A stretch of 64,000 nucleotides of DNA from an uncultured delta proteobacterium (GTDB taxonomy: Bacteria > Desulfobacterota > Desulfobacteria > Desulfobacterales > SG8-13). The DNA is taken from contig CAWKCK010000005.1 of NCBI GenBank assembly GCA_963848135.1, forward strand, positions 186,001 through 250,000, written 5' to 3'. Under the pieces are notes generated by a model that searched no databases, was not told the DNA's origin, and was given only the letters and a program-made list of their open reading frames with translations. The position numbers were made by a program, and so were the translations under genes. Positions 22,280 to 39,500 of the stretch are shown here, piece by piece. How positions within the stretch are numbered: position 1 is the stretch's first letter; each line of letters starts with the position of its first letter.

Positions 22280-22426
22280 TTGCTGCCGTGCGGCAATGCT
22301 GTGTGACCCCCTTTATTCTGATGGCCGATTTCCATCGGGCGCGGTGCTATTCGTGGTAAATCGTTATAAAACCACTATCCGCAGCGGTCTCAATCGGGAC
22401 CTATCCATTGAAACCGAAGAACACCC

Positions 22427-22525: not shown

Positions 22526-22605
22526 AACCAAAAGAACACGCCATCCTCGCAATACAAATAGAAATATTGCAATATTTACAGATAGATAAATTAATGTCGA
22601 ATTAT

Positions 22606-22620
22606 TGGCATTACTTTTGC
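22606..22620 (+). promoter_or_regulatory. Sigma-54 -24/-12 promoter
   Basis: TGGCATTACTTTTGC, with canonical GG-N10-GC spacing. Confidence 0.85.
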
Positions 22621-22745
22621 TCTGCTAACAAGCGAAACAATATTCGATTCTTAGTAACGGTTCAAATAATGAATAAAATTCACTGAATATTGTTTATTAT
22701 TTATTCACCATTTAATTTTCATCACATTCAGGAGAGGGGTCACGC

Positions 22746-25726: not shown

Positions 25727-25729
25727 GGT

Positions 25730-26194
25730 TTACTTTTCGAGTTTGTCGATACGGTCCTTCTGGTGACTGATCCGACTTTTCCAGGCAGCATCCTGCATGA
25801 GGTGAATTCCGGCCAAACGGTTGAATTCACGCGCCTGCTGCGCATTATTCTTAATCAGCCAGGCTTCGGCCAGGTAGTAATAATTCTGCCCACTGCTCGA
25901 ATCGAGAGCCACCGATCGCTCCAGAATGCGGATGGCCGCATCCGGTTCTCCGCGGGTCAGATGCTGCCGCCCTTGTCGCACCATTGCCGCGGCTGCGCGA
26001 ACGTGGGCATTGTGGGTTTCCGGTACCGAAGTCGTCGGCTGTTTGTCGGTCGGTGCGGGAACGGGTTTTGGCGCTGGTTGGGTCACGCGAACATCAGTCT
26101 TCTCCATGCAACCCAGAAGTACCAGTACGACCAGAATGCCGAAGAACATCAGTAAACGGTTATTTTCTCGGTGCGATAAGTCCTTTGAGTCCAT
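25730..26194 (-). CDS. TPR lipoprotein, LpoP-like
   Basis: Lipobox LLGC, Pro-rich linker and TPR helices (AAIRILERSVALD...NYYYLAEAW); immediately downstream of PBP1B. Confidence 0.75.
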   Translation of the reverse strand: MDSKDLSHRENNRLLMFFGILVVLVLLGCMEKTDVRVTQPAPKPVPAPTDKQPTTSVPETHNAHVRAAAAMVRQGRQHLTRGEPDAAIRILERSVALDSSSGQNYYYLAEAWLIKNNAQQAREFNRLAGIHLMQDAAWKSRISHQKDRIDKLEK

Positions 26195-28469
26195 CGATAA
26201 TCACCTTAAAAGGCCCTTGCGCCGGGTGGATCGGACATGGCCGATCAGGCTGCTTTTCTGTCAAAAAGACTTCCTCAACGGGTCGCGGACAGGTACGACC
26301 CTTGGCCAGCAGACCGGATTCACTGCACACCGTTAGCCGGACAACACCTTCGGGCATTCTGAAATCCGCTCCCGTAAAGTAGTCGGGAATCGAGGTCATA
26401 AAATCCGCCCATATCGGCAGGGCAGCCTTGGAACCGGAAGCATCGATCGCATCGCCATTGTCGAATCCGACCCAGACCAGTGCCAGGATATCCGGCGTGT
26501 ACCCGACAAACCAGGCGTCACGGAAATTATTGGTGGTGCCGGTTTTACCGGCAATTGATCCCGGAAGATTCCATGCTCCAAGCGCCCGGGCGGTGCCTTC
26601 GGTCACCACACTTCTGAGCATATCCGTTACGATATATGCTTTGGCCGGCGTGATCAAGTTCTCAATATTGAGATGGCGCTGATTGAGTATCTGGCCGTGA
26701 TCATCGGTGACATCCCGAAGAGACAGCGGATAAGGCAGCACCCCGTCACCCGCGAAGGCACAGTAGGCCCGGGCCAGTTCGATGGGAACTACTTCGAAGG
26801 CACCCAGCGCCAGGGATGGATACGGTCGGATCGGGGTTGAAAAATGAAATCGCGCCACCTGCGTCACGATCGATTCCAGACCCACCCGCATGGCCATATC
26901 CACAGTCGCCCGGTTATTCGACGTCGCCAGTGCCGTACGCATGCTGACATCAATTTCGGCATCTTCAGAAAAATTTTCGGGGGTCCACGGTTTATCGTCT
27001 ATCAGGTAGGTTTGGGGACCACTCGACAAGCGGGAAACCGGTGTCATGGTATCCAAAGCCGCCAGATAGACAAAGGGTTTGAAGGCACTACCAGGCTGCC
27101 GTCGGCTCTGAACGACCCGGTTGTATTGGCTCGTATTGTAATCTCTGCCACCAACCATGGCCAGAATAAAACCGGTCTTGGGCTGTAAAACGACCACCGC
27201 CCCCTGCAACTGGCGTGAAGGATCGGGTCTTTTCAGCGACGGCAAGGTTTGCTCCAGCCGGTTCAATCCGCGGACGAGGGCCTGTTCGGCAGCGCTCTGC
27301 ACCCGGGTGTCGAGCGTCGTAAATATCGAGAGACCCAGTCGGGTGAGGTCATCCGGGGAATAGAGTGCCTCGAGCTGTTGGGAAAGGTAATCCAAAAAAT
27401 AGGGCGCCTTTTTGACAGAGAAACTCTCCCCGACGGCAAGCACAGGTTGTGATCGGGCCGTATCGCGCTCTTCAACGTTGATCCAGCCTTTGGCCTGCAT
27501 CGCTTTGAGTACGTCATCCCGCCGCTGACGGCAGCGGTCGATATGGCTATAGGGTGAATAGCGCCCCGGGGCCCGGATCAATCCGGCAATCGTCGCTGCT
27601 TCGGCCAGCGATATTCGCTCGACACTCTTTCCGAAATAAAAAGTGGTCGCCTCACCGACGCCGTTGATGGCCACCGATCCACTCTGACCGAGGTAAATAT
27701 CGTTCAAATAGATTTCAAGGATCTGGTCTTTCTCGTACATCCATTCGATGATCACCGACATCATCAGTTCATTGAGTTTTCTGCTGAATGTCCTTTCAGG
27801 GGTTAAAAAGAAATTCTTTGCCAGTTGCTGGGTAATCGTCGAGCCTCCTTGTCTGATTTCGCCGTATCGCAAATTGACGTACAGGGCTCTGAGAATGCCA
27901 ACGGGATCGAATCCGTGGTGATCGTAGAACCGGCCGTCTTCGGCGGCAAGGACCGCGTAAATGAATTCGCTGGGCACCTGGCGGATGGAAACAAGCTGGC
28001 GGCGTTGTCGTTCCGGGCCGTAGAATTGGCCAATTTCCTCTGGCTCCAGTTCCAGGATCGGCAGCGGGTTCCGGTTGTCGACCCGCTCGATGGATTTTAT
28101 GACCTGTCGGTCAAAACGAATCCGGACGAGATCGCCCGGCCGACTCAGATTCGGTAGGGAAAAATCGTTCAAATATATCTCCGCCGAAGCCGCGGCAAAC
28201 CGTACCTCACCTTTTTTCTGCGGCCGGGCGCTGACAGTCCTGTATCGCAGACGGGATAGTTTCTCGCGCAGGTGATCCGGCCCGAACCGTTGCCCGGGAT
28301 ACAGCAGCGTCGTGTCTGAATAGACCGTGGACGGAATACGCCAGAGACGGGAGGAAAATCGCTTTTCAATCCGGGCAGACAAATGCCAGCCGTAAACGAG
28401 GACAGCGCCGATGGCGACTGCCAGAAAAATACACACCGACTTGAATAGTTTGTTCATCACGCACCACAC
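26160..28469 (-). CDS. mrcB: Penicillin-binding protein 1B (UB2H + GT51 + transpeptidase)
   Basis: EDGRFYDHHG, GGSTITQQLAKN, RKLNE, SAFKP, SNN and KTGT; UB2H-like segment (LREKLSRLRYR). Confidence 0.93.
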   Translation of the reverse strand: MWCVMNKLFKSVCIFLAVAIGAVLVYGWHLSARIEKRFSSRLWRIPSTVYSDTTLLYPGQRFGPDHLREKLSRLRYRTVSARPQKKGEVRFAAASAEIYLNDFSLPNLSRPGDLVRIRFDRQVIKSIERVDNRNPLPILELEPEEIGQFYGPERQRRQLVSIRQVPSEFIYAVLAAEDGRFYDHHGFDPVGILRALYVNLRYGEIRQGGSTITQQLAKNFFLTPERTFSRKLNELMMSVIIEWMYEKDQILEIYLNDIYLGQSGSVAINGVGEATTFYFGKSVERISLAEAATIAGLIRAPGRYSPYSHIDRCRQRRDDVLKAMQAKGWINVEERDTARSQPVLAVGESFSVKKAPYFLDYLSQQLEALYSPDDLTRLGLSIFTTLDTRVQSAAEQALVRGLNRLEQTLPSLKRPDPSRQLQGAVVVLQPKTGFILAMVGGRDYNTSQYNRVVQSRRQPGSAFKPFVYLAALDTMTPVSRLSSGPQTYLIDDKPWTPENFSEDAEIDVSMRTALATSNNRATVDMAMRVGLESIVTQVARFHFSTPIRPYPSLALGAFEVVPIELARAYCAFAGDGVLPYPLSLRDVTDDHGQILNQRHLNIENLITPAKAYIVTDMLRSVVTEGTARALGAWNLPGSIAGKTGTTNNFRDAWFVGYTPDILALVWVGFDNGDAIDASGSKAALPIWADFMTSIPDYFTGADFRMPEGVVRLTVCSESGLLAKGRTCPRPVEEVFLTEKQPDRPCPIHPAQGPFKVIIDGLKGLIAPRK

Positions 28470-28858
28470 AAAACATAGGGTTGATTAACCTTTGGAACGG
28501 CGATTATACAGACAGATCCGATGCGATGGAAGGGTTATTCGCCCGGTACGCAAACGACTGCAGGAAGATTGTCGCCACGCACGGCAATTTTTTTGAATGT
28601 CAGCCTTCAGAGCCTGGATCCCATAGAAGGGCAGCAGTCGTCCCACCGCAAGCCTCGTTTATCCGTTGGCCTTGATAGGGGTCGAATCCAGCGCTGTTGG
28701 CATAACTATATGGTATGAATAGTAAAATTGTCGAATGGGCAACCATAACCCATCACGGGAGGGGGTGAAGCGGTCGTCTTTGCATGCCCGGTGCCGTTGC
28801 GTAAATACGGTACTTCGGGTGAGAGGTCATCGGAGCAGGGATTGGAAACCGAAAGAAT

Positions 28859-28999
28859 TTAGTGTTCCGAGTCTTCGCGATCAAACGTTGCGTCGGTGTT
28901 CTCGGAACCGTCATCGAAATCACTCCAAGGGATTGATTTCTTGAACTCTTTCTCCACCAAATCTTCCCAATTGTAGCCGGGTCTGTATTCTTCGTGCAC
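28859..28999 (-). CDS. Small acidic hypothetical protein (46 aa), below the ORF-track cutoff
   Basis: Manual translation: GTG start, MHEEYRPGYNWEDLVEKEFKKSIPWSDFDDGSENTDATFDREDSEH*; AGAAAGG upstream. Confidence 0.5.
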   Translation of the reverse strand: MHEEYRPGYNWEDLVEKEFKKSIPWSDFDDGSENTDATFDREDSEH

Positions 29000-29059
29000 G
29001 ACAGCGAACCTTTCTCTGTTTACGATTCGGCGGCCCGGGTAACGCCTTAAGGAACACTA

Positions 29060-29099
29060 AAAGTATAACTCCCCGGGTGGCATACCACAGGGAGTTATA
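29060..29099 (-). terminator. Intrinsic terminator-like hairpin
   Basis: TATAACTCCC...GGGAGTTATA stem followed by CTTTT on the minus strand. Confidence 0.6.
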
Positions 29100-29477
29100 A
29101 AAGATGATGATATAAAGGATGTTTCAGGTAACGCTCGTGTTAATTAAAAATGCCTAAGTTAACTTACTTGAATTCTATAAGATTTGAAAGATGACTACCC
29201 TACCTAAAAAATCTCCTCGTCGTTTTATGTTAATAAGTAATGTTAACTCGCCAACAAAATTTTTTCCGGATTTGTGTGATCGTATCCCTGAAACATCCCT
29301 TATACGCCTGGTTGAGGGCCCATCCAATTTACCCCCGGTTTTGCCGTAAATCCTGTGTGTCGGCATGCCCGCTTGGTCCATCGGCAGCAGCGCAAGAGTC
29401 GAAAGAGAAGGAGGAGGAAGACGACCGCGTTTGGGTCCCGGATAACCTAAATTTCTATCCGCATCCCGGCATACCGA
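29060..29477 (-). ncRNA. Putative sigma-54-dependent structured sRNA 1 (5' domain about 29360-29477; 3' end uncertain)
   Basis: Lies downstream of a -24/-12 promoter. The 5' end UCGGUAUGCC pairs with GGCAUGCCGA, and a GUCG/CGAC hairpin loop carries UCUUCCUCCUCCUUCUCUUU. No convincing CDS. Confidence 0.6.
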
Positions 29478-29486
29478 GAATAGCTG

Positions 29487-29614
29487 ATACAAGTTTTATG
29501 CCAGCACGCCGAGATGTAAAATTTTCTTTTTTTTCGAATACTTAAAAATCCCAACCCCGGTCTTTCCATACATTTTTTGACAAAATACAGTCAAATTCCT
29601 GACAAAATACGTCA
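29487..29614 (-). promoter_or_regulatory. Sigma-54-type promoter with IHF-like site and paired TGAC-N7/8-GTCA UAS
   Basis: TGGCATAAAACTTGTAT (29503-29487); TGAC-N8-GTCA at 29578-29593 and TGAC-N7-GTCA at 29600-29614; AT-rich IHF-like TTTCGAATACTTA at 29532-29544. Confidence 0.7.
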
Positions 29615-29643
29615 GCCGGTCTCTTTACTGCCACCCGGTCGGA

Positions 29644-31431
29644 TCAAACCCACTGCAATGCTTCTGAAAGGCACGTTTCCGTCAGAATCCGCCGTTTGCC
29701 CAGGCGCAGGTACACAGCGCGACCGACCGTGGCCAGGCGACGCAGCTCCGTAATAAGCACGCGCAGCCGGTCATACGACCACATATCGAGACATCGCTGC
29801 CTCGCGAGACCGCCCCGGTGACAATGCGGTGGAACGGGTGGCGCATCGCATTTTGGCGTCTCAAACCGGCCGACGACCTGCCCGCCACTGATAACGAGCC
29901 CGATAATCGTCTTTTGCCGTGAGCCCCACGTCAGAGACGACTCACTCAGAAGTGCCAACCATCGGGCCCGGCGGAGCATCCAGGCGCATTGACCCAGTAA
30001 GGATTCTATCCGACCGGCCACATCTTCGGCCGTCCACAGGTCATCGGCAGCACCGGTCTGTGTTTCTTCTTTGCTGTCGTCTATCGATTCCTTCCCGTTT
30101 TCAAGCGCCGCTCTAGTCAGGCGCCGCTTCATGTCACCGATGGCAAGTAACGTTCGCCAGATCGGCTTGGATTGAATGGCTGTCGCATGACGATCCATGA
30201 ACAGTCCGATTCCGCCCAGCAGGCAGGCTTTATCCGGGCAAAAACGCTCCGGCAAGTCGAGCAGCACTGCCGAATCCTTGACTGCGGGTTCAGAAAACGA
30301 TCCTGACGGTTCCGCCAGGATATTACCGATGGCATGCAAGGCTTTGAAAAGGCCCCGATGCGGCACGGGTCCGAACCTATGCTGCCGATCCGGTACATGC
30401 GAATAATTCTTGAAGTCGGGGGACATGAACCAAGTGTGGCGGTTGTCGGCCTGCAGAGCAATGTTGTACGGCGGACGGAATCTCTTGATTTCTTCGGTTT
30501 CCAAAAGGGCGGCCTCCAGGGCCGATCCGGTGGGTGTTATTTTTACGTCGGCCGCCTGGGTAAGCATCTCCAGTGATTTCTCCGAATGACAACCGGTTTT
30601 ACGAAAATGGCTGTTTACCCGCTGGCGGAGATGCGTTGCCTTACCGATATAAAGTAAATCTCCATTGGATCTGACGAAACGGTACACCCCGGGTTCTTCC
30701 GGCAGGTTACGCCGAATGGTAGAGGGCATTGGATATCGGCGAACAGCGGTCGGTACCGGTGTCCGAGCCAGCCAGTTTTTCAATTCCGAAAGGGTGTGAA
30801 TTCCGAGAGACCGATTGAGGAGAGTGACCAGCTGACGCCAGATAACGGCTGTGGCGATGGCATGGGCGGCGGAACGCCGACGAGGTGTAACCGTGTGCCC
30901 AAAGTATCCGGCCAAGGCTCGCAGGCCTTTACGGGGAAGTTCGGGCAGCAGGCGCCTGGCAATTTCATGACTGCAGATGATATCGAACGGAAATATTGAT
31001 GCAGCACCCTGCAATTCGTAGAGATGCCGCAAAAAAGGCTCTTCAAAGCGTGAAAAATGAATGACCAGCGGGCACCGCTGCAATTGGTTGGCGCCGACGA
31101 CAGAACGGGCCGTTTCGTTCAACCGGCGCCACACGGCGTCAGTCGACCACCCATCAATTATATCGGCTTGCGTTAATCCGGTCAGGCGCACGACAGGCGG
31201 TGGAATCGTACCACCTGAAGGCAATCGAACCCGGCAGCTAAAAACCGACGACCAATCGGATACGCCGGCAATCACGGCCGATGTCCGGATCCATCCGATT
31301 TCAATCAGACTGGCGCATTCCGGACGGCTCCCGGTGGTCTGGCAATCGAGGATCAATACCTCGAGAGTCTTAAGCGGCGAATGGATCCCCATGCCTGCAG
31401 GAACGGTATTTGGGGTCACGAGTGAAGGCAC
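29644..31431 (-). CDS. DEDDh (DnaQ-like) exonuclease - GIY-YIG (UvrC/Cho-like) endonuclease fusion
   Basis: ILDCQTTG...IEIG and LTGL N-terminal fold; PGVYRF...LYIGKATHLRQRV...ALLETEEIK...PPYN. Confidence 0.85.
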   Translation of the reverse strand: MPSLVTPNTVPAGMGIHSPLKTLEVLILDCQTTGSRPECASLIEIGWIRTSAVIAGVSDWSSVFSCRVRLPSGGTIPPPVVRLTGLTQADIIDGWSTDAVWRRLNETARSVVGANQLQRCPLVIHFSRFEEPFLRHLYELQGAASIFPFDIICSHEIARRLLPELPRKGLRALAGYFGHTVTPRRRSAAHAIATAVIWRQLVTLLNRSLGIHTLSELKNWLARTPVPTAVRRYPMPSTIRRNLPEEPGVYRFVRSNGDLLYIGKATHLRQRVNSHFRKTGCHSEKSLEMLTQAADVKITPTGSALEAALLETEEIKRFRPPYNIALQADNRHTWFMSPDFKNYSHVPDRQHRFGPVPHRGLFKALHAIGNILAEPSGSFSEPAVKDSAVLLDLPERFCPDKACLLGGIGLFMDRHATAIQSKPIWRTLLAIGDMKRRLTRAALENGKESIDDSKEETQTGAADDLWTAEDVAGRIESLLGQCAWMLRRARWLALLSESSLTWGSRQKTIIGLVISGGQVVGRFETPKCDAPPVPPHCHRGGLARQRCLDMWSYDRLRVLITELRRLATVGRAVYLRLGKRRILTETCLSEALQWV

Positions 31432-31532
31432 CTGTTAATTTAGGTACAACGGGATCCGAAAACGACAGGAAATTCCGGGAGTATTCTTGATGGCTTCGAC
31501 CGAAAATCACCGACGGTGAGGCGCTCGTCGAT

Positions 31533-32441
31533 TTATTCGATTTTCAACTTTCTGGCGAAAGAGGCCGCTTCCAGACCTGCCACGCAGCCTTCACCCACGG
31601 CTTTGGCCATCTGCCACGGTGGTCCGCAGATGTCACCGGCGGCGAAGACGCCCGGAACACTGGTGTTCTGTTTTTTGTCGGTATGAATATATTTGGCATC
31701 ATCATCCAAACGGATTCCAAATTCAGCAGCAAGTTCCATAACCCCCTTGGCTCCCAGTTCGATGAAAACACCACTGACAGGAATTGGCGTGCCATCTTTC
31801 AACACGATGCCGGTCACTTCCTTGCCTCCGTCTATTCTCTCGACGGCCGCGCCCTGATGAATGATGATATCGCTTTGCTCGATTTCTTCCCTCAGGGAAT
31901 CAATCACCTGTAACTGTTTGCAGACCAGGTGAACCTTACGGGCGGTGCTCGTCAGCGTCACGGCGCCGCTGGCCGCCGCACTCTCACCCCCGATAACCGC
32001 CACGTCCTGGTCACGGAAAAAATTGGCATCGCACTCGACGCAGTAACTGACCCCCTTGCCGAGAAAATCCGTTTCTCCGGGAACACCCAGCTTGTTGCGG
32101 GTGGAGCCTGTGGCGATAATCAGGCTTTTACAGCGGATGCTTTGCCGGCTTTCGGTCGTCAGGCTGAACAATTGGCCGTCCGGGGTGACCTTCAAAATAT
32201 CTTCGTCGACGATTTGCGCACCGAATTGAACGGCCTGCTCCCGGCCAATGCGCAGCATATCCTCCCCGGCCACGCTGAAGAGGCAGCAGAAATTTTCGAC
32301 ATGGGCGTGAAAAAGACTGCTCTTGACCTGCTTACCGAACATGACAACCGAGGCCTTTCGACGGGCGGCGTGAATGGCGGCCTGTAGTCCGGCCGGTCCT
32401 GTACCGAGGATAACCACATCAATGATTTCTTTTGGCTGCAT
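31533..32441 (-). CDS. Thioredoxin reductase-like flavoprotein
   Basis: ILGTGPAG, IIATG, GKGVSYCVECD and FAAGD...AVGEG. Confidence 0.9.
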   Translation of the reverse strand: MQPKEIIDVVILGTGPAGLQAAIHAARRKASVVMFGKQVKSSLFHAHVENFCCLFSVAGEDMLRIGREQAVQFGAQIVDEDILKVTPDGQLFSLTTESRQSIRCKSLIIATGSTRNKLGVPGETDFLGKGVSYCVECDANFFRDQDVAVIGGESAAASGAVTLTSTARKVHLVCKQLQVIDSLREEIEQSDIIIHQGAAVERIDGGKEVTGIVLKDGTPIPVSGVFIELGAKGVMELAAEFGIRLDDDAKYIHTDKKQNTSVPGVFAAGDICGPPWQMAKAVGEGCVAGLEAASFARKLKIE

Positions 32442-32991
32442 TTGTTATCTCCCAACCCGGCGGACATAATATTAAACATCAGTTTTCAGAGGCCAATCCG
32501 TTCCAGGCGATGCTATTGCCCTATTACGGCAATTTATTATTGATAAGCGGTATGATCGCTTCTCTTTGTCTCGAAGGACAAAATTTTCAAATATGCGATA
32601 ATCGACGGTCCGGTAACGACCGCGGATCCGTTCTCTGACATCATCTTGCACCGGACCGACAGGGCTGTCAAGCGTTGTTGCCCAGATGCTCGATTTCAAC
32701 CCGAAAGCAGAGCGCACCCAGTGATCGGCCCCGCGCAAAGATCACTATATTCTTGAATTTGAACAATTTTCGAGGCCATGACGTGAACATGACGCTTTCA
32801 GTTCCTCTGTGCTCTTGAATTCGGTGTTTTCAGCATTACACTATTGACTATGGTTAATTGCGTGAGGCCGACATGTTTGACCGGTGCACCAAAGCTGATC
32901 AAACCGACCTCACCTGAACACGTTGGCGCCATGAAGTATTCCGACCGAACGCAGCGTGTCGATATATACCACCGAAAGGAGATGAAGCCGT

Positions 32992-33294
32992 ATGGCCAAA
33001 GATAAATTCAAAGTAACACCGGATGTTTGTACATATCTGAGCGAAGACGAACACACCCTGAACATTGAAGTTTCCGTGCCGGGTGTCAACAAAGGCGATA
33101 TCCGCCTGCAACTGCTCGATGACAGTTTTAACCTGACAGCCCCGGGAAAGGATGTCGAATACGTCACCGCTTCAGCGTTCTGCTGCCCGGTTAAGGCCAC
33201 TGAGGCCAAGGCAAAATATGAAAACGGCTGCCTTAAGATCTCGGTGCCTTTCAAAAATCCGTTCGAGAACGCAGTGCAAGTTACAATCGGTTGA
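32992..33294 (+). CDS. Small heat-shock protein (Hsp20/alpha-crystallin)
   Basis: VPGVNKGDI and AKAKYENGCLKISVP; AAGGAG RBS. Confidence 0.88.
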   Translation: MAKDKFKVTPDVCTYLSEDEHTLNIEVSVPGVNKGDIRLQLLDDSFNLTAPGKDVEYVTASAFCCPVKATEAKAKYENGCLKISVPFKNPFENAVQVTIG

Positions 33295-33374
33295 CGGCAC
33301 CCAACACCGGGAAATTAATAATCACGACCCCAAAGACAATGCCTCACAGGAAGTCGTCGGGAACCAGAATACAG

Positions 33375-33402
33375 AAAGCAGGGTCTTTCAAGACCCTGCT
33401 TT
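33375..33402. terminator. Bidirectional terminator-like hairpin
   Basis: AAAGCAGGGTCTT-TC-AAGACCCTGCTTT perfect inverted repeat between convergent genes. Confidence 0.7.
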
Positions 33403-33627
33403 GCATTTGCACCCCAATTCATGCAACCGCATGAGCACGGGTTGCATCTTCCCACATTCCATTCAGATTCAAAGCGCCCGGTGGAAGGTCTTTGGAATCG
33501 TCACTTTCAATCGGATATGGCGCCTCTAACCCAGACATTTCATGTCAAGTATCTAAAATTAAATTAATTTACTCATAGTGGCGAAAAAGATTTTATGAAA
33601 TATTCGGGCTAATAAACCAACACCCGG

Positions 33628-34212
33628 TCAAGCGCTGCCACCTTTGAGACCAAGTGCATCGGCAACGTCGCGCATACCCATGATCGTGTCCGTTATGAGC
33701 TCGCTCACTTCAACGCCCAGCATCTGAGCCCCTTTTTCAATAATTGTCCGATCGACACCGGCGGCAAACCGCTTGTCCTTCCATTTTTTCTTGACTGACT
33801 TGGCCTTGAGGTCCATCAGGCTCCGTGATGGCCGGACAAGGGCGGTCGTGACGACCAGGCCGGTCAGTTCATCTATGGCAAAAAGGACTTTTTCCATTTC
33901 AGTTTGTGGTTCCACATCCGTACATATACCCCAACCGTGACTCACCACCGCACGGATATATTCTTCGGGCCAGTTTCGGTCCTTAAGAATTTCTTCGGTC
34001 TTACGGCAGTGCTGGTCGGGATACATTTCGTAATCCAAATCATGGATCAGGCCAACAATCCCCCATTTTTCTTCATCCTCATCGCGTTTGTGCGCCATGT
34101 ATCGCATGACGCCCTCAACGGCTAAGGCATGTTTGATCAGGCTCTCATTCCGGTTGTACGTCTTCAGCAACGTTAAGGCATCGTCACGTGTCGGCACATT
34201 CGGTTCATTCAT
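33628..34212 (-). CDS. HD(IG) domain metal-dependent phosphohydrolase
   Basis: KHALAV, IHDLDY, SH and AIDELTG; AAGGAGG RBS. Confidence 0.9.
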   Translation of the reverse strand: MNEPNVPTRDDALTLLKTYNRNESLIKHALAVEGVMRYMAHKRDEDEEKWGIVGLIHDLDYEMYPDQHCRKTEEILKDRNWPEEYIRAVVSHGWGICTDVEPQTEMEKVLFAIDELTGLVVTTALVRPSRSLMDLKAKSVKKKWKDKRFAAGVDRTIIEKGAQMLGVEVSELITDTIMGMRDVADALGLKGGSA

Positions 34213-34275
34213 ATGTTACCTCCTTAAAGTCAGAAACTTCTCGATCTTGTGCCCGGCGGAAGCGTCCTGACGGCA

Positions 34276-34845
34276 TTACCGCCTATCCCCCTCCCCGGGC
34301 AGAAACGGCCACAGCTCTTTCAATCCCATGGATCCGGCGGACACGATTATTTTGGGTGAGTATCGGCCGTACTGAATAATTTTTGCCATTTTATCATCGC
34401 AGCCCGCCGCAGAAAGACGGCCGCTCACCCAAAGGACCCGCGGGAACAAAAGCGCGTTGATGAAAGGCAGATCCTCGTCTCGACAAAAACTGCTCCCACG
34501 GCCATCGTCGATAATGATAAAATCGGCCCATCCGTCTTTTAAACATTCGATGGTCTCCCGTTCTCCCGGGTCAAGAAGAAAGAGACGTTTGTCTTTCGAT
34601 AACTGCCACGCCGCGCGCCTGCCGCTGGAGACGATAGTGACTGCCGCTCGGCGGGCCACATCTCTGAAGAACGCCGCCCCGGGGTATCCACTGTGCGTAA
34701 CCTCCCAAAGGACCGTCGCCGTCATCAGCACACGGTAGGTCTGAACCAGCCGTCCGAACAATCCGGCTTTGAATAGTATAATGGCTGAAGAGGCGTCAAC
34801 AATCGCCCGTTTTCGATCTATGCCTGTATTCTGAAGAGTGTCCAT
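34276..34845 (-). CDS. PIN-domain protein (DUF3368-like)
   Basis: IVDASSAI, V..EV, LDPGERETI and IIIDD acidic PIN motif. Confidence 0.75.
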   Translation of the reverse strand: MDTLQNTGIDRKRAIVDASSAIILFKAGLFGRLVQTYRVLMTATVLWEVTHSGYPGAAFFRDVARRAAVTIVSSGRRAAWQLSKDKRLFLLDPGERETIECLKDGWADFIIIDDGRGSSFCRDEDLPFINALLFPRVLWVSGRLSAAGCDDKMAKIIQYGRYSPKIIVSAGSMGLKELWPFLPGEGDRR

Positions 34846-35025
34846 GCCATATGGGCAATAAAGTAATCATTGCTGCACTATTTTATCAAGAACCTAATTT
34901 GAGCGATTGTCGAGATTGCCGCAGATACAAGGAAGATGTCGTTCCGTCCCGCCGCCGGCGGGATCAGCTATGCGGGACGGCATATGACGCCGTGGATGCG
35001 GCAACCCTCCAGAGGTGGATAAAGA

Positions 35026-35129
35026 TCGGCAATCCCAATGGGTTTCAAATTTTAAAATCAAAGGATGATAGAATTCATTAAATACAAAGCCGTTCACCCT
35101 CCATTAATAATTTGAAACGCTCACTTTAG
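35026..35129. mobile_element. MITE-like repeat, family A
   Basis: Reverse complement aligns end-to-end with 16386-16488, including the shared non-TIR end GGGATTGCCGA. Confidence 0.8.
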
Positions 35130-35224
35130 GAAGAAGTTGTTGCATAAGTGCGGGGGGACCCCGATTGAATCACGCTCAGTAAATTTCGAGCATATAGGCA
35201 CGGAATAGAGAAACAGGGGATGGG

Positions 35225-35353
35225 AGAAAAAATTGGCCCCTGGAGTTCGCGGGACTCCAGGGGCACTTAAAGGAGGAGTCACTCCGAGGTTCACCAGGCC
35301 CCGGAGCGTGTCTGATGAAGTTGCCAACACCGGATTGGGTGGTAGCAGCTTGA
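35225..35353 (-). ncRNA. Putative sigma-54-dependent sRNA 2 (about 128 nt, three hairpins)
   Basis: Two stem-loops, then single-stranded ACUCCUCCUUU, then an 11-bp GC-rich terminator (35236-35264) and a U6 tract. Confidence 0.75.
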
Positions 35354-35362
35354 ATTCAGAGT

Positions 35363-35494
35363 ATACAAGTTCCATGCCAATATCATCCAAAATTTAAACT
35401 TTCAACATGCTGATATTATTTGCTTTTATTAAAGGTCGGCAAAATAGCTCCCAAATTTGCCAAAACACGTCAACACTCCTGACCAAATTTGTCA
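35363..35494 (-). promoter_or_regulatory. Sigma-54-type promoter with IHF site and paired TGAC-N7-GTCA UAS
   Basis: TGGCATGGAACTTGTAT (35379-35363); IHF consensus match TATCAGCATGTTG (35415-35403); TGCC-N7-GTCA at 35458-35472 and TGAC-N7-GTCA at 35480-35494. Confidence 0.72.
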
Positions 35495-35740
35495 CCGGCG
35501 GATCTAAAATAGCCATCCGGCGGTATCCGAATATAGATGTTTGGACGCCTCCGCGTGGCCCGTGGATCGATTGTGTTTTTTCCTTTTAATTCATCCCGCG
35601 ATTATGTAAAAATAAAAGGGTCACAATGCCCTTCGCCTGAATATTTTGATGAAAAAACCGGATGAGATCGATCGTCGGTCCCAAATAACTTTGCCTCAGG
35701 CGTATGGAAGGGATCGAGGGAGGGGGAAAACGTCGCTAAA

Positions 35741-36718
35741 ATGAACATGGCAAGTGCGATTGTAATGGCCGGCTACAATAACAAGTGGGCCGTCAAGAAA
35801 TATGCCAAAATCATCGCCGAACACTATGGTGAGACATTTATCGAAACCGGATACAAGCCGTTGAGGGAATTCGAGGTCATCGAGAACGGTCAATCGGTCA
35901 AGAAACCACTGATTCAATTCACCCTGGAACAGCTCTTCCAATGCAATCGCATCGGGGACATCACCATCGTCGGTCATCAAATGCTGCTGGAGCAGCGTCT
36001 TAACGATTTTCTCACCCAGTCTGGCCGGCCATATCGAATTATCAACCAGAACTCCCGTATCCCAGCTGATGTGATCAAGGCGTTTCACATTCGGCCCCGC
36101 AAGGTTAAACACAACTCCATCGCTGGAAATATGATCAAGGGCTACGCGGCCAGCACCGCTGGAGAAGAGAAACGGCACGCTTTGTTCGTGGCATCGGACT
36201 CACCATTGACCACCAGCTCTTTTATGGATTACTTCCTCGATCTGGCCGATAACTTTGCAACGGGGAATACGATTATTCTCCCCGCGGTGTTAATCGACGG
36301 TGCCACGGACAATTTTGGGCGATACCCGATGAAACTCATTAACGACTCGGATTTCCAACTGTCGGATAAAACCGATGCCCACGGCCGCCAGGGATTCCGC
36401 CTCTCTTCCCTGATGTATGCCAACCCATACGGATTCGACATCAACACCGCCAATACCGCTTACAATCTGCGCAAATGCCTGAACCCCAAAGTGCAGCTAA
36501 AATTGTTCAGGATCACGCGCCATCTGGGATATAAAAATTTCTACTCCAAGCATTTTATCCAGAAGGACCTGAGCTTGAAAGAAGTCGAAAATATTACCTC
36601 AGCTTTTTTCGACGGTCGTCTGAAGATCATTCCGGTTCAGGAGGTGGTTTCGAGCTACGATTATGACGGTACGGACGATGAATACCGTCGGTTGGCAGAA
36701 ATTCTTCGAAAAGGCTGA
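35741..36718 (+). CDS. Nucleotidyltransferase-like (MobA/NTP_transferase, GT-A fold) hypothetical protein
   Basis: AIVMAG start, K-PL...GKKPLIQFTLEQL...ITIVG, ASDSPL and C-terminal DYD. Confidence 0.65.
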   Translation: MNMASAIVMAGYNNKWAVKKYAKIIAEHYGETFIETGYKPLREFEVIENGQSVKKPLIQFTLEQLFQCNRIGDITIVGHQMLLEQRLNDFLTQSGRPYRIINQNSRIPADVIKAFHIRPRKVKHNSIAGNMIKGYAASTAGEEKRHALFVASDSPLTTSSFMDYFLDLADNFATGNTIILPAVLIDGATDNFGRYPMKLINDSDFQLSDKTDAHGRQGFRLSSLMYANPYGFDINTANTAYNLRKCLNPKVQLKLFRITRHLGYKNFYSKHFIQKDLSLKEVENITSAFFDGRLKIIPVQEVVSSYDYDGTDDEYRRLAEILRKG

Positions 36719-36772
36719 AGGGACTGATTTGCGTCCCGGAACAAGACAGCGGGCGACAATCCGCTGTCATTG

Positions 36773-37258
36773 TCAATGCAGTTCTTCTCGGATGCAAAGT
36801 TGCAGTTTCAGGGCATGCTTTTGCTCCTCGGCAATGATCCTCTCCAGGTCGTCCTGCGCTTCCCTGTCTTCCACAAATGGCCGCAGCATTTTAAAGAACT
36901 GGACCTTGTCCTTTTCGAATTCAATCGTGACCTTGAGCATTTGCATGTCTTTTTGAATGCCCGAAACATCGGCATTCTCCAACGAAAAACTCAAACCTCC
37001 GATAGTCTCCAATAAGATCTCACGGCCGACCTCGGCGATCTGCGGGTCTCCTTCCATATTCTCGGCTTTTCTTCGCAATGCCGAAAACCATTCCACATGC
37101 CGGGCTTCTTCATCAACGAGCCACGCGAGCATAGTTCGCAAATCTTCGTTTGTGGCCCGAGTCAATGCCATGCGGTAGATTTTTTCTGCATTTTTGTCGA
37201 TCTGAATGGCGATTTCAAATAAGTCTTCACTGGTAAACACAACATCCTCCGGAATCAC
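36773..37258 (-). CDS. Ferritin-like (rubrerythrin family) protein
   Basis: AIQID...IY, DEEARH, IEFE and EEQKH di-iron motifs. Confidence 0.85.
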   Translation of the reverse strand: MIPEDVVFTSEDLFEIAIQIDKNAEKIYRMALTRATNEDLRTMLAWLVDEEARHVEWFSALRRKAENMEGDPQIAEVGREILLETIGGLSFSLENADVSGIQKDMQMLKVTIEFEKDKVQFFKMLRPFVEDREAQDDLERIIAEEQKHALKLQLCIREELH

Positions 37259-37434
37259 TGGAATCAGTCTGTTAGAATCCTATCGCCCCGATATCTCGCG
37301 GGTGGCAGGCGTCAATTTGCAAGGTAATAAGAAAAATTCGGGGTCGAAGCGTAATAGGGGTTGTCAAAAGATCGTTCCGTTATTCGACCGTTTTTTTTAC
37401 CAATCCCTTATACCTTCCTTGCGTATTGCGGAAT

Positions 37435-38349
37435 TTATTTTTGAAAAGCGGTATAACCGGCGAAATTTCGCATCTTTCCTGATTGGATCTGCAAAACCAG
37501 ATTGTCGATCATCCTGCCGACAATTTCCTCCGCCCGTCTGAGATCTTTCTCGGAGCCGAAACTGGACCCAAGCTCCCGAAAAATAACATCGTATGGCGAT
37601 GGCTTGGCAGTGCCGTGCGGATAGGCCGTATCCGTTTTGGTGTAAATATGATCGTCGAACACATAGTTGCAGGGCCCCAGATCGGTATGTCTCCGATAGG
37701 GCCAATCGATCTTCAGCTGCGAAAATTTCCGCAGCAACCGCCGGCATGTTCTCCACTGAAGTATGTCTTCTGCTGTTACCGGGGCCTCCAGGCGATGTTC
37801 CAAACCGATGAAAAACGCTTCCAGCAAACTGGCCTCGGTAACGATCAATCCGTATTCGTACCAATTGTCGGCGGTCTCCCGCACAATTGTCTTGACCGAA
37901 GGGGAAAGCCGATGGTGGGTCGGACAGAAGTACACTCGGCATGCCATGCCGCCGTAATAGCTGAGCCCACGATAATCGATGCCGTCATTTCCCGCCGCCA
38001 AAGGATGCAGTAGGCAGCCGACCCGCGCGAGCTGTTGGCCAACAAACCCCACAAAAGGGCAATGGTGAAATTCAGGAAAAGGGACGCGCCCGCGCTGATC
38101 TTCCAATGTCTTGCGCCCGAAAGCCACGATCGCGTCCGCCTCGCGGGGTATCGAAGCAAATCTCTGTGTGCGACCGGTTAACATCGCCTCCAAGGCGGAA
38201 CGCGATACATCCGCCACGTTGTATAACCCGCAGCAGGCCGCGCAAGACACCCGTTCATTGAATTGACACAGGTAAACGCCGCCGGGTGCCAACGGTCCCG
38301 GTAGCGGCATGGTCTCGTTGCCTTTGCGCCGTTCCGTATTTTCACTCAT
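37435..38349 (-). CDS. Cys-cluster (YkgJ-like Zn/Fe-binding) hypothetical protein
   Basis: SCAACCG, HCPF...GCLLH and ACRVYFCP. Confidence 0.65.
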   Translation of the reverse strand: MSENTERRKGNETMPLPGPLAPGGVYLCQFNERVSCAACCGLYNVADVSRSALEAMLTGRTQRFASIPREADAIVAFGRKTLEDQRGRVPFPEFHHCPFVGFVGQQLARVGCLLHPLAAGNDGIDYRGLSYYGGMACRVYFCPTHHRLSPSVKTIVRETADNWYEYGLIVTEASLLEAFFIGLEHRLEAPVTAEDILQWRTCRRLLRKFSQLKIDWPYRRHTDLGPCNYVFDDHIYTKTDTAYPHGTAKPSPYDVIFRELGSSFGSEKDLRRAEEIVGRMIDNLVLQIQSGKMRNFAGYTAFQK

Positions 38350-38453
38350 CTCTATCCTGCATATTTACGAATGATTTTCCGCAAGGCTGAAAATAAGATT
38401 AAATTCCAACGGATAAAATATATTTGCGGATTAATTTTGATGATAACCGGATA

Positions 38454-39068
38454 TCAGCGTCGCAAAGCCAGGCACAGACCGTCCTTTTCCGGAGAATGCG
38501 CCGGTAAAAATGAGAACAGGTGCACGGTGGCCCATTCGGGAGCGGCAAAAATCAATTGATTGAACGGTTGGGCGGCTTCGAACCCCACATTGTCGGCAAC
38601 CAGCAATCCGCCTTTGCGCAATAATCGTCGGCAGTCGGGCAAAACCTTTCCATAATCGGATTTTTCGATATCCAAAAAAATCAGGTCAAAACGGTCTTCC
38701 ATCGTCTGCAGTATCCCAACGGCGTCACCGGTTCTCACCTCGGTTACTGTTGCCAAACCGGCCTGGCGGAAATTGGCCTTGGCCCTTCCGGCCATTTCGG
38801 GATCGTTTTCTATGGTTACCATACGACCGCTATTGGGATCGAGGGCCCGGCCGAGATAGATGGCCGAATATCCGGTGGCCGTTCCCAGTTCCAAGATTGC
38901 GGCAGCGTTGATGGAACAGGCCAGGATAAATAGAAGTTCTCCCACCACCGGTCCGATGATAGGAATATTTTCTCGATCGGCTTCGGCTTCCAGCGCTTTC
39001 AACAGCGGGTCACGCTCGGGAATGAACTGCCGGAAGTACGACTCGGGATTCTCCACCATAGCTGCCAT
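38454..39068 (-). CDS. SAM-dependent O-methyltransferase (YrrM/caffeoyl-CoA type)
   Basis: LELGTATGYS, FDLIFLD and GGLLVADNV. Confidence 0.92.
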   Translation of the reverse strand: MAAMVENPESYFRQFIPERDPLLKALEAEADRENIPIIGPVVGELLFILACSINAAAILELGTATGYSAIYLGRALDPNSGRMVTIENDPEMAGRAKANFRQAGLATVTEVRTGDAVGILQTMEDRFDLIFLDIEKSDYGKVLPDCRRLLRKGGLLVADNVGFEAAQPFNQLIFAAPEWATVHLFSFLPAHSPEKDGLCLALRR

Positions 39069-39092
39069 AGCTTCCTCTCTGACGGCCTAATC

Positions 39093-39500
39093 TTATTCAG
39101 GCAAAATTTTATATTCAGTTGTGATGTCAGCAACGCCGCGCACGGTCGCCGCTACCGAGCAGTATTTCTCTTCGGAAAGTTGAATCGCCTTCTGAACGGC
39201 CTTTTCCGTCAACCCCTTGCCACCGATGCGGAAGGTCAATTTTATCTTGCGGTAGGCCCAGGGCGGCTCGGGATCGTGCTCACCGGTGGTTAAAATCTCG
39301 AGACTGCTGGGAGGCTGCCGTTTTTTTGTCAGAATTTCGACCACATCGACGGCCGTGCACGCTGACAAGGCAATGAGCAACATTTGCGACGGCCGCATGC
39401 CGTTCGGGTCATTCTCTCCGGACAGTACAACCGCATGCTTATTTTCATCCATCCCCACGAATTGTTGCCCGGTTACCCAGCGTATGGTGGTACTCGGCAT
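39093..39500 (-). CDS. OsmC family protein
   Basis: RPSQMLLIALSAC and KYCSV; AAGGAG RBS. Confidence 0.92.
   Translation of the reverse strand: MPSTTIRWVTGQQFVGMDENKHAVVLSGENDPNGMRPSQMLLIALSACTAVDVVEILTKKRQPPSSLEILTTGEHDPEPPWAYRKIKLTFRIGGKGLTEKAVQKAIQLSEEKYCSVAATVRGVADITTEYKILPE

Follow-up and report, generated by a model that had tools for sequence, protein, structure and literature searches.

A predicted small RNA with an exposed anti-Shine–Dalgarno strand and a sigma-54-type promoter in Desulfobacterales

A predicted sRNA and its neighbourhood

The window is a stretch of 64,000 nucleotides from the genome of an uncultured member of the Desulfobacterales (genome G000; such handles are used only where genomes or loci must be told apart). 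On its minus strand lies a predicted small RNA (sRNA), preceded by a promoter and upstream palindromes and flanked by two protein-coding frames (Table 1). The first-pass annotation of this DNA had described two minus-strand hairpins, the first with 12 of 14 positions paired, followed by an unpaired ACUCCUCCUUU, an 11-bp terminator stem and a U6 tract. All of these elements are present where they had been placed, and hairpin 2 can be lengthened.

Table 1 Features of the sRNA locus, with positions in the window
Feature	Position	Strand	Remarks
Divergent gene, 325 aa	35741..36718	+	Conserved beside type A copies; given as context, outside the RNA
Upstream palindromes, candidate enhancer (UAS)	35469..35494	-	TGAC-AAATTTG-GTCA overlapping GTCA-GGAGTGT-TGAC; 90–115 nt upstream of the -24 element
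Sigma-54-type promoter, TGGCATGGAACTTGT	35365..35379	-	-24 TGGCA and spacing canonical; -12 TTGT, not TTGC
Predicted sRNA, type A	35227..35353	-	~125 nt; putative 5′ end 12 nt past the -12 element; 3′ end at the T6 tract
Hairpin 1, AAGCUGCUACCACC/GGUGUUGGCAACUU	35351..35318	-	12 pairs over 14 positions; specific to type A
UUCAUC motif	35314..35319	-	Single-stranded, conserved; complements GAUGAA, interpreted as an anti-start-codon
Hairpin 2, CUCCGGGG/CCUCGGAG, loop CCUGGUGAA	35308..35280	-	Extended to 10 pairs; between UUCAUC and the anti-Shine–Dalgarno seed
Anti-Shine–Dalgarno seed, ACUCCUCCUUU, core CCUCCUUU	35279..35269	-	Unpaired
Intrinsic terminator	35227..35264	-	11-bp stem 35264..35236, 8 G-C, loop of 7; T6 at 35232..35227
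Downstream ORF, 189 aa	34845..34276	-	Same strand as the RNA

Folding supports this structure: the minimum free energy of -52.5 kcal/mol lies below the -37.9 ± 3.3 obtained from 200 dinucleotide shuffles (z = -4.38), none of which folds as well (0/200). The core CCUCCUUU has an ensemble unpaired probability of 0.91, compared with 0.48 for the whole molecule, and that of UUCAUC is 0.84. No Rfam 15 family matches the RNA, either in a 1-kb region of the window (E up to 10) or at 12 homologous loci (E up to 5); the weak rows returned, including PyrR208 at 17.3 bits and VrrA at 32.9 bits (the latter on a minimal copy, described below), lie far below the gathering scores and were put down to chance.

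The gene for the 325-aa protein lies beside the type A RNA in four other genomes (tblastn; G006, 89%; G158, 67%; G018, 64%; G103, 62%) and was not found by tblastn at the G125 locus. Its product has no Pfam or NCBIfam match. A protein atlas gives a mere lead to MobA-like NTP transferases.

Homologues and covariation

BLAST alone returned 2 convincing homologues among 40 relatives, so covariance models were needed. Model R1 gave full-length matches in relatives (14 of the 20 genomes of the window's family). We call the three-hairpin form type A and its sister form type B; in model searches, both are confined to the window's family plus a small number of other families. A pattern scan of metagenomes yielded eight true homologues among 80 fetched loci: six of type B, one identical to the copy in G006 and one new type A copy (L237). 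Neither a regular expression nor model R2, which was built from types A and B, found a sibling three-hairpin copy in the window's genome.

The seven distinct type A homologues, a small set aligned by fitting to the covariance model, have 86.7% of cells paired and compensatory changes in 15 of 29 pairs, distributed over all three helices. None of 500 column shuffles reached these values, and slid controls gave 2–3 such pairs. Both sides change in 6 of the 7 modelled pairs of hairpin 1 (74.5% of cells paired), in 5 of the 10 pairs of hairpin 2 (90.8%) and in 4 of the 12 modelled terminator pairs. The single strands are conserved in sequence: CUCCUCCUUU is invariant in all seven, with an unpaired probability of the seed of 0.51–0.96 across them, and UUCAUC is kept in six, the copy in G125 having GCAUC.

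An order-wide minimal sRNA

Model R2 also picks up minimal forms in other families, at 30–36 bits. A further covariance model, R3, was built from 7 minimal copies only, with the window's sequence excluded. It matches 109 of the 151 Desulfobacterales genomes sampled (83 of the 113 high-quality ones) and describes an sRNA of ~65 nt. In a sample of the phylum, 11 genomes outside the order gave weaker R3 matches, with the same layout in the 9 loci that were read. The window's genome also holds a minimal copy, on contig C3 (C3:301641-301748).

The window's RNA, type B and the minimal sRNA have in common, in the same order, a -24/-12 promoter box, UUCAUC, CCUCCUUU (CCUCCUU) and a terminator. In minimal copies, which lack hairpin 2, the UUCAUC and anti-Shine–Dalgarno motifs are contiguous, whereas in type A hairpin 2 separates them. 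UCAUC or UCAU is near-invariant in the minimal copies, and their consensus, UUCAUCUGUUYUCCUCCUU, is complementary at every position to AAGGAGGARAACAGAUGAA. Model searches and alignments show the predicted type A RNA to be an elaborated paralogue, in which the ~65-nt minimal sRNA has gained hairpins 1 and 2. Run with filters off, R3 gives no match on 35227..35353, so the homology between type A and the minimal form rests on the R2 cross-hits and the shared order of motifs. The best R3 score within 34000..37000 was 14.3 bits (E = 0.11) at 35382..35456; we considered this segment as a degenerate minimal-like promoter and 5′ region and rejected it as not significant.

Promoter and candidate activator

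The sequence TTGGCATG (35380..35373), followed after four nucleotides by TTG, does not vary among the first three homologues, all 15 type A and type B copies or all seven distinct type A copies, and the predicted RNA start lies at a fixed distance of ~12 nt downstream of this box. The TGGCA at -24 includes the GG dinucleotide. The GC dinucleotide at -12 is absent from all seven type A copies, which have TTGT or TTGA there at the exact spacing of ten bases after the GG; we therefore term the promoter sigma-54-type rather than a canonical member of the class, and its dependence on sigma-54 is less sure than that of the minimal copies, 34 of 35 of which carry the textbook TTGGCA-N6-TTGC. The window's genome encodes rpoN, and we infer that the window's RNA would be transcribed from this sigma-54-type promoter.

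The missing GC at -12 might instead mean that a housekeeping sigma factor uses a TATACT-like sequence overlapping the -12 position and that the TTGGCATG box is conserved for some other reason; several type A copies do have TAnnAn-like hexamers over this position. We consider this very improbable. A scan for sigma-70 promoters found none at the RNA start, its sole match on this strand being at 35442..35415, and the type A copies have no conserved -35 element at a suitable distance. Moreover, neither the TTGGCA box nor its exact distance from TTG varies, and both recur in minimal copies with perfect sigma-54 promoters and palindromes next to the activator gene.

The block of palindromes upstream of the promoter is also conserved in G006 and at the metagenome locus L237, and related TCAA-N4-TTGA palindromes precede type B and minimal copies. 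Those of the window are imperfect, differ from the canonical TCAA-N4-TTGA sites and failed a strict palindrome filter; canonical GGTTCAAAATTTTGAACC sites are found in the same genome on C3, at ~301800-301960.

One conserved gene for an NtrC-type activator lies just upstream of 11 of the 35 minimal copies (orthologues 68–100% identical, ending <700 nt away), and the minimal sRNA is a neighbour of this gene in at least eight families. An HK and RR/EBP operon ends ~280 nt upstream of the minimal copy in G037 and G118, and three GGTTCAAAAATTTGAACC-type palindromes lie in the interval. This adjacency elsewhere makes it likely that the activator of the window's sRNA is the same conserved two-component NtrC-type regulator. 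The activator query has 52 matches in the window's genome, where the orthologue (C3:751201-752568) stands out at 74% identity, the next best reaching 49%; the activator gene and the window's RNA are on different contigs. A scan of genome contigs with the activator protein was swamped by paralogues, with 2 of 80 loci kept at >70% identity, neither of which has the sRNA after the gene. Feedback on the start regions of the kinase and activator genes was also considered and set aside, there being no convincing pairing with the sRNA in G000 or G037.

The opposite strand

The first-pass annotation had named a real small open reading frame (ORF) on the plus strand as a finding that would count against an sRNA. 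On that strand, AAAGGAGGAG resembles a Shine–Dalgarno sequence and is followed by an ATG 41 nt downstream; it could be where ribosomes bind to translate a tiny ORF (in the window, MKLPTPDWVVAA), with the hairpins as mRNA structure and hairpin 2 drawing the Shine–Dalgarno sequence close to the AUG. The minimal copies lend this some appeal, as their plus-strand spacing from Shine–Dalgarno sequence to ATG is a canonical 7 nt and the frame often starts with MKKLLG (exactly that hexapeptide in 5 copies).

The length of the frame, however, is not conserved. Frames called where a CAT lies no more than 60 nt from the last CCTCC have 12, 30, 5, 4, 55 and 24 aa in six type A homologues, and 4–43 aa in 25 minimal copies. 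At L237 this rule gave no plus-strand frame, but it is not decisive there, the last CCTCC falling in the terminator. One copy in G154 has no plus-strand ATG because CAG replaces CAT, and the MKKLLG start follows from conservation at the nucleotide level, third codon positions included. The plus-strand frame would also enter the promoter and, in G037, run antisense to the activator gene. All transcription signals, namely the palindromes, the -24/-12 box at its fixed distance and the U-tract after the hairpin, point to the minus strand, and we give very little credence to a functional plus strand.

Independence from the downstream gene

The 189-aa ORF shares its orientation with the RNA, which could accordingly be a cis-acting leader or attenuator of that gene rather than a trans-acting sRNA. 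Two further observations can be read in this way. Most type B copies have no U-tract behind their G+C hairpin and are located upstream of a DUF401 gene. Public RNA runs gave contigs that hold a small share of the sequence words and none of which spans the body of the RNA; the sole contig from an RNA library (192 nt, ~95% identical, covering 35109-35272) begins within the seed and passes through the terminator. Against a leader stand the strong terminator with its T6 tract and a gap of 380 nt between terminator and gene, 240 nt of which belongs to an interspersed repeat present 54 times in the genome. Only the congener G006 has the 189-aa gene next to the RNA; the G018, G158, G103 and G125 loci have none within 1.5 kb, and the neighbour downstream of the minimal copy is convergent in both G037 and G118. 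We regard a leader as quite improbable.

The window's RNA has a predicted promoter and a terminator of its own and is independent of its neighbours, as is characteristic of trans-acting sRNAs. The earlier reading of the locus as an independent sRNA with an exposed anti-Shine–Dalgarno seed, a terminator and a U-tail is well supported by the conserved promoter, the covariation, the conservation of the seed and the differing downstream gene. Very probably, 35353..35227 on the minus strand genuinely encodes a small regulatory RNA, in a bacterium of the sulfate-reducer type.

Pairing with start regions and candidate targets

The core CCUCCUUU, contained in CUCCUCCUUU, is identical to what we take to be the usual 3′ tail of 16S rRNA, this general sequence serving as the reference. 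We infer that the type A RNA would lower translation through this exposed copy of an anti-Shine–Dalgarno sequence. Occlusion of ribosome binding sites, as suggested at the first pass, fits the anatomy of the RNA, and fits it further in that the second conserved motif, UUCAUC, reads as an anti-start-codon; as to the mRNAs concerned, target scans gave candidates only.

These candidates, which are weakly indicated, are mRNAs with an extended site, AAAGGAGG(AG), and then AUGAA, for example those for aapJ-like and livJ-like periplasmic amino-acid-binding proteins of ABC transporters. Candidate start regions in the window's genome are an aapJ-like one (C4:96390), a livJ-like one (C5:584570) and a RidA-like one on C3. 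The aapJ-like start region falls within the best 1% of the background in only 11 of 31 sRNA/gene pairs. No specific target stands out in the scan of the window's genome, the best sites belonging to generic strong-Shine–Dalgarno genes, and the 11-mer exactly complementary to the seed occurs in five type A genomes no more often than its reversed control. We rejected rplO, whose start region matched with one mismatch in G118, since the match is lost in G037, G097, G154, G158 and G000. Extra exact matches to the complement of the seed in G097 and G154 are second copies of the sRNA, not targets, and a five-genome search for mRNAs with AUGAARAAAUUAUUAGG after GGAG returned mainly the sRNA genes themselves. 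A search with PF17209 found no Hfq in the window's genome, which is 98.65% complete.

The RNA could also be real and act as a decoy, its CU-rich single strands mimicking the 16S rRNA tail and titrating a protein or an RNA that contacts the anti-Shine–Dalgarno sequence. The identity of the core to that presumed tail agrees with this, as do the scans that yielded no specific mRNA and the single strand of the minimal copies, which extends over ~35 nt and is conserved well beyond a normal seed of 7–12 nt. No candidate partner was identified, however, and the succession of anti-Shine–Dalgarno motif, 7-nt spacer, anti-AUG and anti-AAR is explained most simply by pairing with start regions. A decoy is in our judgement improbable.

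Discussion

Taken together, we think it rather probable that the locus encodes a ~125-nt trans-acting sRNA that has a sigma-54-type promoter, is an elaborated paralogue of the minimal sRNA and pairs with the start regions of mRNAs. An enhancer-binding activator, which may be the conserved two-component NtrC-type regulator encoded at C3:751201-752568, would act at the upstream TGAC/GTCA palindromes to drive the promoter. Of the two free single strands of the RNA, CUCCUCCUUU would pair with the Shine–Dalgarno site and UUCAUC with the AUG-AA start of the mRNA, and hairpin 2 would bulge out between these duplexes. Such pairing would block binding of the 30S subunit and thereby lower translation, and perhaps needs no Hfq, a protein that the search did not find in the genome.

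The arrangement recalls several known systems. Pxr, an sRNA of Myxococcus xanthus, is described as having a sigma-54 promoter and lying 262 nt downstream of the NtrC-type activator gene nla19; it has paralogues with their own sigma-54 promoters, and its targets are given as still unknown (PMC5568312; PMC5684412). Those portions of the first report that deal with Pxr do not describe the pair of anti-Shine–Dalgarno and anti-AUG motifs present here (PMC5568312). As far as Pxr is portrayed there, the likeness lies in the minimal copies of G037 and G118, which are ~280 nt downstream of an NtrC-type gene, and in the three stem-loops of the window's copy. We saw no sequence likeness, the taxon differs and the window's copy is away from the activator gene. 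No Pxr row appears among the Rfam matches for the window's 1-kb region (E up to 10) or the 12 homologous loci (E up to 5), although Rfam 15 presumably includes a Pxr model.

Closer in taxonomy, Desulfovibrio vulgaris Hildenborough is reported to have sigma-54/EBP-dependent non-coding RNAs downstream of DVU0679 (Dv_sRNA2) and DVU0653 (PMC3333781; PMC4641369). On that description, the two cases share the phylum, an NtrC-type two-component regulator that targets an sRNA gene just downstream of its own gene, a sigma-54 promoter with a conserved binding site, and a function that is unknown in both. The D. vulgaris RNAs, compared by description, belong to the Desulfovibrionales, whereas the family here is order-wide in the Desulfobacterales and has the elaborated paralogues A and B.

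The Qrr sRNAs of Vibrio also depend on sigma-54 and an NtrC-type activator (LuxO), often adjoin the activator gene, occur as several paralogues per genome and base-pair at start regions with the help of Hfq. In contrast to Qrr, the system here has no Hfq that we could find, no sequence or Rfam match and a different signal. GcvB of enterobacteria and AbcR1/2 of alpha-proteobacteria repress mRNAs of periplasmic amino-acid-binding proteins; only if our candidate targets hold would the RNA resemble them, as a C/U-rich single strand that pairs with the start regions of binding-protein genes of ABC transporters, and in promoter type, structure and sequence it is unrelated to them.

A bolder reading, which we put forward tentatively and think unlikely to hold as a whole, is that the family is a 'mirror image' of the consensus initiation region, with an anti-Shine–Dalgarno motif, a spacer, an anti-AUG and an anti-Lys codon. 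By this means a single two-component/sigma-54 switch would lower, without Hfq, the translation of mRNAs that have an extended Shine–Dalgarno sequence and AUG-AAR starts, foremost those of periplasmic solute-binding proteins, and type A would clamp its target across a three-way junction. If this were true, type A would show sRNA evolution, with the anti-motifs split by hairpin 2 and a second hairpin added at the 5′ side.

Beyond the hairpins, seed and terminator recognized at the outset, the analysis adds a sigma-54-type promoter with upstream palindromes, an order-wide family and an activator gene. The sulfate reducers of the Desulfobacterales have dozens of sigma-54 activators, the outputs of which are mostly unknown, and the output of one of the best conserved of these appears to be a small RNA rather than a protein operon. 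The RNA was found in 109 of 151 sampled genomes of the order and yet has no match in Rfam 15; it belongs in genome annotation and in Rfam-like libraries. The sensor kinase, activator, sigma-54, sRNA and translation would form a testable module in organisms important to the marine carbon and sulfur cycles, and the family may offer a natural case of sRNA paralogues that gain hairpins while retaining the same two single-stranded motifs.

Structure and promoter of the window RNA

Read on the minus strand, window positions 35353..35225 are UCAAGCUGCUACCACCCAAUCCGGUGUUGGCAACUUCAUCAGACACGCUCCGGGGCCUGGUGAACCUCGGAGUGACUCCUCCUUUAAGUGCCCCUGGAGUCCCGCGAACUCCAGGGGCCAAUUUUUUCU. The first-pass annotation described this stretch as two hairpins, a free anti-Shine–Dalgarno (anti-SD) seed, a third, terminator hairpin and a T6 tract, which is exactly the layout of the minimum-energy fold (Table). 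At −52.5 kcal/mol, this fold was matched by none of 200 dinucleotide-preserving shuffles (−37.9 ± 3.3 kcal/mol; z = −4.38), and the terminator was found independently by a consensus terminator scan. UUCAUC and the seed are both single-stranded in the window RNA (unpaired probabilities of 0.84 and 0.91); across the seven sequences of this three-hairpin form (type A), the value for the seed core CCUCCUUU is 0.51–0.96 (0.91 in the window RNA), and CUCCUCCUUU is invariant in all seven. Rfam 15 gave no family at the gathering score in the whole window, and permissive filters over the 1-kb region around the small RNA (sRNA) returned three rows only, all at chance level.

Immediately upstream, TTGGCATGGAACTTGT (35380..35365) is a predicted promoter. 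Its two elements are laid out like the −24/−12 boxes of sigma-54 promoters, at precisely the expected distance, and its position would put the transcription start near 35353, where hairpin 1 begins. Within it, TTGGCATG-N4-TTG is invariant between the window and two BLAST-detectable homologues, and the sequence farther upstream varies. The genome encodes rpoN, and a sigma-70 scan found no promoter at the position of the box. The −12 element is TTGT in the window and TTGT or TTGA in all seven type A copies, TTGC occurring in none; a type A promoter of a kind other than sigma-54 is a less likely reading. The palindrome block upstream is also kept in another type A genome (G006) and a metagenome locus (L237).

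Two other readings of this locus were considered. One is a small ORF on the plus strand, which the first-pass annotation named as evidence that would count against the sRNA if it proved to be translated. The frame from the ATG opposite CAU spans 12, 30, 5, 4, 55 and 24 amino acids in six type A homologues (L237, in which the last CCTCC falls in the terminator, gives no frame under the rule used) and 4–43 amino acids in 25 minimal copies, the ATG being missing from one copy. With frames of such varied length, and all transcription signals on the minus strand and so oriented against it, this ORF is unlikely. A cis-acting leader of the downstream gene is also unlikely for the window, as a terminator with T6 is present, a 240-bp interspersed repeat takes up a large part of the interval before the next gene, and that gene is kept beside the RNA in G006 only.

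The repeat, about 240 bp and MITE-like (34891–35130), comes right after the sRNA terminator. A search of the genome gave 92 HSPs for it at E ≤ 1e-10, and 54 copies, spread over 13 contigs, are 200 nt or longer. It renders the ORFs at 34894–35097 (−) and 34851–35081 (+) spurious and explains the very high RNA-run contig depth over its interval. Pfam matches of genes around the sRNA (24785–39500) suggest redox or stress roles (Table). Three public RNA runs were available, of which two are metatranscriptomes (share of words, 5%) and the third carries no label. In these data the RNA body was uncovered, and one 192-nt contig of about 95% identity covers 35109–35272; these runs neither support nor refute transcription of the window RNA.

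Features of the window RNA, its surroundings and related loci in this and other genomes (G000, the genome of the window; C, contigs; L, individual loci)
Feature	Location	Strand	Basis or details
Hairpin 1	5′ part of RNA	minus	12 pairs; minimum-energy fold
Free linker	between hairpins 1 and 2	minus	minimum-energy fold
Hairpin 2	after linker	minus	10 pairs; minimum-energy fold
Unpaired ACUCCUCCUUU	after hairpin 2	minus	minimum-energy fold
Terminator	3′ end of RNA	minus	11-pair G+C-rich stem, then T6; minimum-energy fold and consensus scan
Overlapping palindromes TGAC-N7-GTCA and GTCA-N7-TGAC	35494..35469		90 to 115 nt upstream of −24 element
Hsp33	24785-25726		Pfam
Thioredoxin-reductase-like flavoprotein	31533-32441		Pfam
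HD-domain protein	33628-34212		Pfam
Rubrerythrin-like protein	36773-37258		Pfam
OsmC	39093-39500		Pfam
Minimal copy, G000	C3:301641-301748 (= L063:1495-1602)	minus	R3, 59.8 bits
aapJ-like gene, G000	C4:96390		first in operon with two permeases and ATPase; start region UUAAGGAGGAGAGCAGAUGAAG
Paired minimal copies, G068	L336:1003-1114 and 1501-1612
Paired minimal copies, G163	L348:1212-1326 and 1501-1611
Paired minimal copies, G117	C2:347374 and 350081

Two structured forms

A covariance model built from three sequences (R1) gave full-length matches in 14 of the 20 genomes of the window's family, a tally that takes in 12 of 15 other genus members; one genome, G018, has two copies. The matches split into two forms. 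Type A, composed of hairpin 1, hairpin 2, seed and terminator, is carried by G000, G006 and G018, and was later found in G158, G103 and G125, from two other families, and in L237. Type B, present in most congeners of the window's genome, is closed by a short helix (ACGUCCG/CGGACGU), shares hairpin 2 with type A and bears the seed CGCCUCCUUU.

When the seven distinct type A sequences are aligned, pairing holds in 86.7% of cells, and both partners vary at 15 of 29 pairs (6/7 in hairpin 1, 5/10 in hairpin 2 and 4/12 in the terminator), values reached by 0 of 500 column shuffles; sliding the partners by one to three columns leaves two or three both-side-changed pairs. Because the alignment was fitted to the covariance model and the sample is small, we regard this covariation as good but not overwhelming support for the proposed structure.

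Type B copies (loci L041–L052; genus g1 and G018) are flanked by a DUF401 gene and a CDP-alcohol phosphatidyltransferase gene, the latter preceded by an inositol-1-phosphate synthase gene. The type A neighbour gene gave a lead to a MobA-like nucleotidyltransferase, and there are hints of an inositol-phosphate theme common to the neighbours of both forms. In most type B copies the last G+C hairpin is not followed by a U-tract, so they may be read through or processed; a cis-acting leader is a more open reading here than for the window. Just downstream of the G018 type B copy (L052:1642-1748, +), several weak Rfam rows overlap, all to anti-SD-type sRNAs (suhB/mmgR at 25 bits, Xoo2 and Hrs13) and all below the gathering score; a further small RNA may be encoded here in tandem.

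A minimal family across the order

A model of types A and B together (R2) gave hits in 11 of the 151 Desulfobacterales genomes sampled, some matches being only about 65–75 nt long, without hairpins 1 and 2. Built from seven such minimal copies alone, R3 found matches in 109 of the 151 genomes (83 of 113 high-quality genomes; 77 of 109 genera), with two to four copies in some. A canonical sigma-54 promoter, TTGGCA-N6-TTGC, precedes 34 of 35 aligned minimal copies, and is followed by the conserved single strand AACCUAAUAAUUUYUUCAUCUGUUYUCCUCCUUAA and then by a terminator hairpin and U run. In several genomes, minimal copies occur in tandem or nearby pairs at distances of 300–2700 nt, and every copy has a separate sigma-54 promoter (Table).

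The G000 minimal copy has the promoter TGGCATTAATATTGC, and an RNA reading ...UAUUCAUCAUCUGUAUUCCUCCUUUG before its terminator; upstream of it, at 134 and 212 nt, are the near-perfect palindromes GGTTCAAAATTTTGAACC and GTTCAAAAATATGAAC. Since G000 and G013 carry a minimal copy as well as type A and type B, respectively, the two longer forms appear to be extra paralogues that do not replace the minimal one. A phylum sample of 151 genomes, at least five listed members of which (G000 included) belong to the order, gave weaker R3 matches (38–52 bits) in 11 genomes from outside it; nine of these loci, on inspection, have the same layout of palindromes, sigma-54 promoter, CU-rich strand and terminator.

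Recovery between the models is one-directional: R2 recovers minimal copies, and R3 did not recover the window RNA even with filters off. Type A and minimal copies nevertheless have in common, in the same order, the −24/−12 box, UUCAUC, CCUCCUU and the terminator, as well as upstream palindromes of a related kind. On the basis of these features and the R2 matches, we infer that type A is an elaborated paralogue of the minimal sRNA.

A linked sigma-54 activator

Genes for a histidine kinase (475 amino acids) and an NtrC-type response regulator/sigma-54 activator (460 amino acids) end about 280 nt upstream of the minimal sRNA in G037 and G118; three GGTTCAAAAATTTGAACC-type palindromes separate activator gene and sRNA, and a convergent TPR gene follows the sRNA. 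The flanks, about 1.5 kb, of 35 minimal copies were examined for this activator. In 11 cases an orthologue encoded on the sRNA strand ends within less than 700 nt upstream of the sRNA; these 11 orthologues represent at least eight families and are 68–100% identical. Curated NCBIfam models gave no match to the activator at cut-off, AtoC, NtrC and ZraR being nearest.

Only one gene of G000, C3:751201-752568, is a clear orthologue, with 74% identity along its full length against 49% for the next best. Directly past its stop codon are CGUCUGAUUUCCUCCUUUAUGGCCGA and a hairpin (C3, L098:1437-1492, minus), an element that resembles the 3′ half of the minimal sRNA, without promoter or palindromes, and may be a remnant or a 3′-UTR-borne copy. 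In the window itself, a sensor kinase (sCache/PAS/HisKA/HATPase), an NtrC-type sigma-54 activator of 474 amino acids (C5:206879-208276) and an MFS transporter are encoded in a row at 18957-24158 (+), at a distance of 13 kb from the sRNA. Sharing only 38% identity with the sRNA-linked activator, this one probably belongs to a separate circuit.

Predicted mechanism and candidate targets

Exact complementation of the minimal consensus UUCAUCUGUUYUCCUCCUU gives AAGGAGGARAACAGAUGAA, in which a Shine–Dalgarno site is followed, after a 7-nt spacer, by AUG and the first bases of a lysine codon. In the simplest reading, the sRNA would pair with both the Shine–Dalgarno site and the start codon of target mRNAs, blocking initiation. 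Hairpin 2 sits between UUCAUC and the seed in type A, and would bulge out between the two pairings. Because no Hfq (PF17209) was found in the 98.65%-complete G000, control genomes having matched, pairing may be chaperone-independent or rely on another protein.

With the two segments of the window RNA scored separately over 16,730 candidate start sites of G000, only generic strong-SD genes emerged; a stricter scan of 2,265 sites ranked a RidA-like gene first, a livJ-like binding-protein gene 8th (its site, AAAAAGGAGGAGUUAAGAUGAAA, is kept in G006 too) and an aapJ-like gene 34th. The aapJ-like gene ranked third of 16,730 with the G000 minimal copy as query. Over 31 sRNA/aapJ pairs from 28 genomes, the aapJ start region fell within the best 1% of the G000 background in 11 and was unremarkable in about a dozen (median background fraction, 0.086), scores that are inflated by the strong Shine–Dalgarno sites of all aapJ-like genes tested. 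Amino-acid-binding-protein mRNAs are thus reasonable candidate targets, nothing more. In five type A genomes, exact 11-mer complements of the type A seed were no more frequent than a reversed control. A less likely reading is that the sRNA acts as a decoy.

Relation to known systems

The position of the minimal sRNA downstream of an activator gene matches that of Pxr with nla19 in Myxococcus (PMC5568312) and of the Desulfovibrio vulgaris ncRNAs downstream of DVU0679 and DVU0653 (PMC3333781 and PMC4641369). Full-text literature searches on sigma-54-dependent small RNAs returned no description of this family. The kind is already known: a sigma-54/activator-dependent sRNA, often adjoining the gene of its activator. 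What adds interest is the breadth of the family, an anti-initiation-region design that is nearly complete, and the inserted hairpins by which the copy in the window stands apart.
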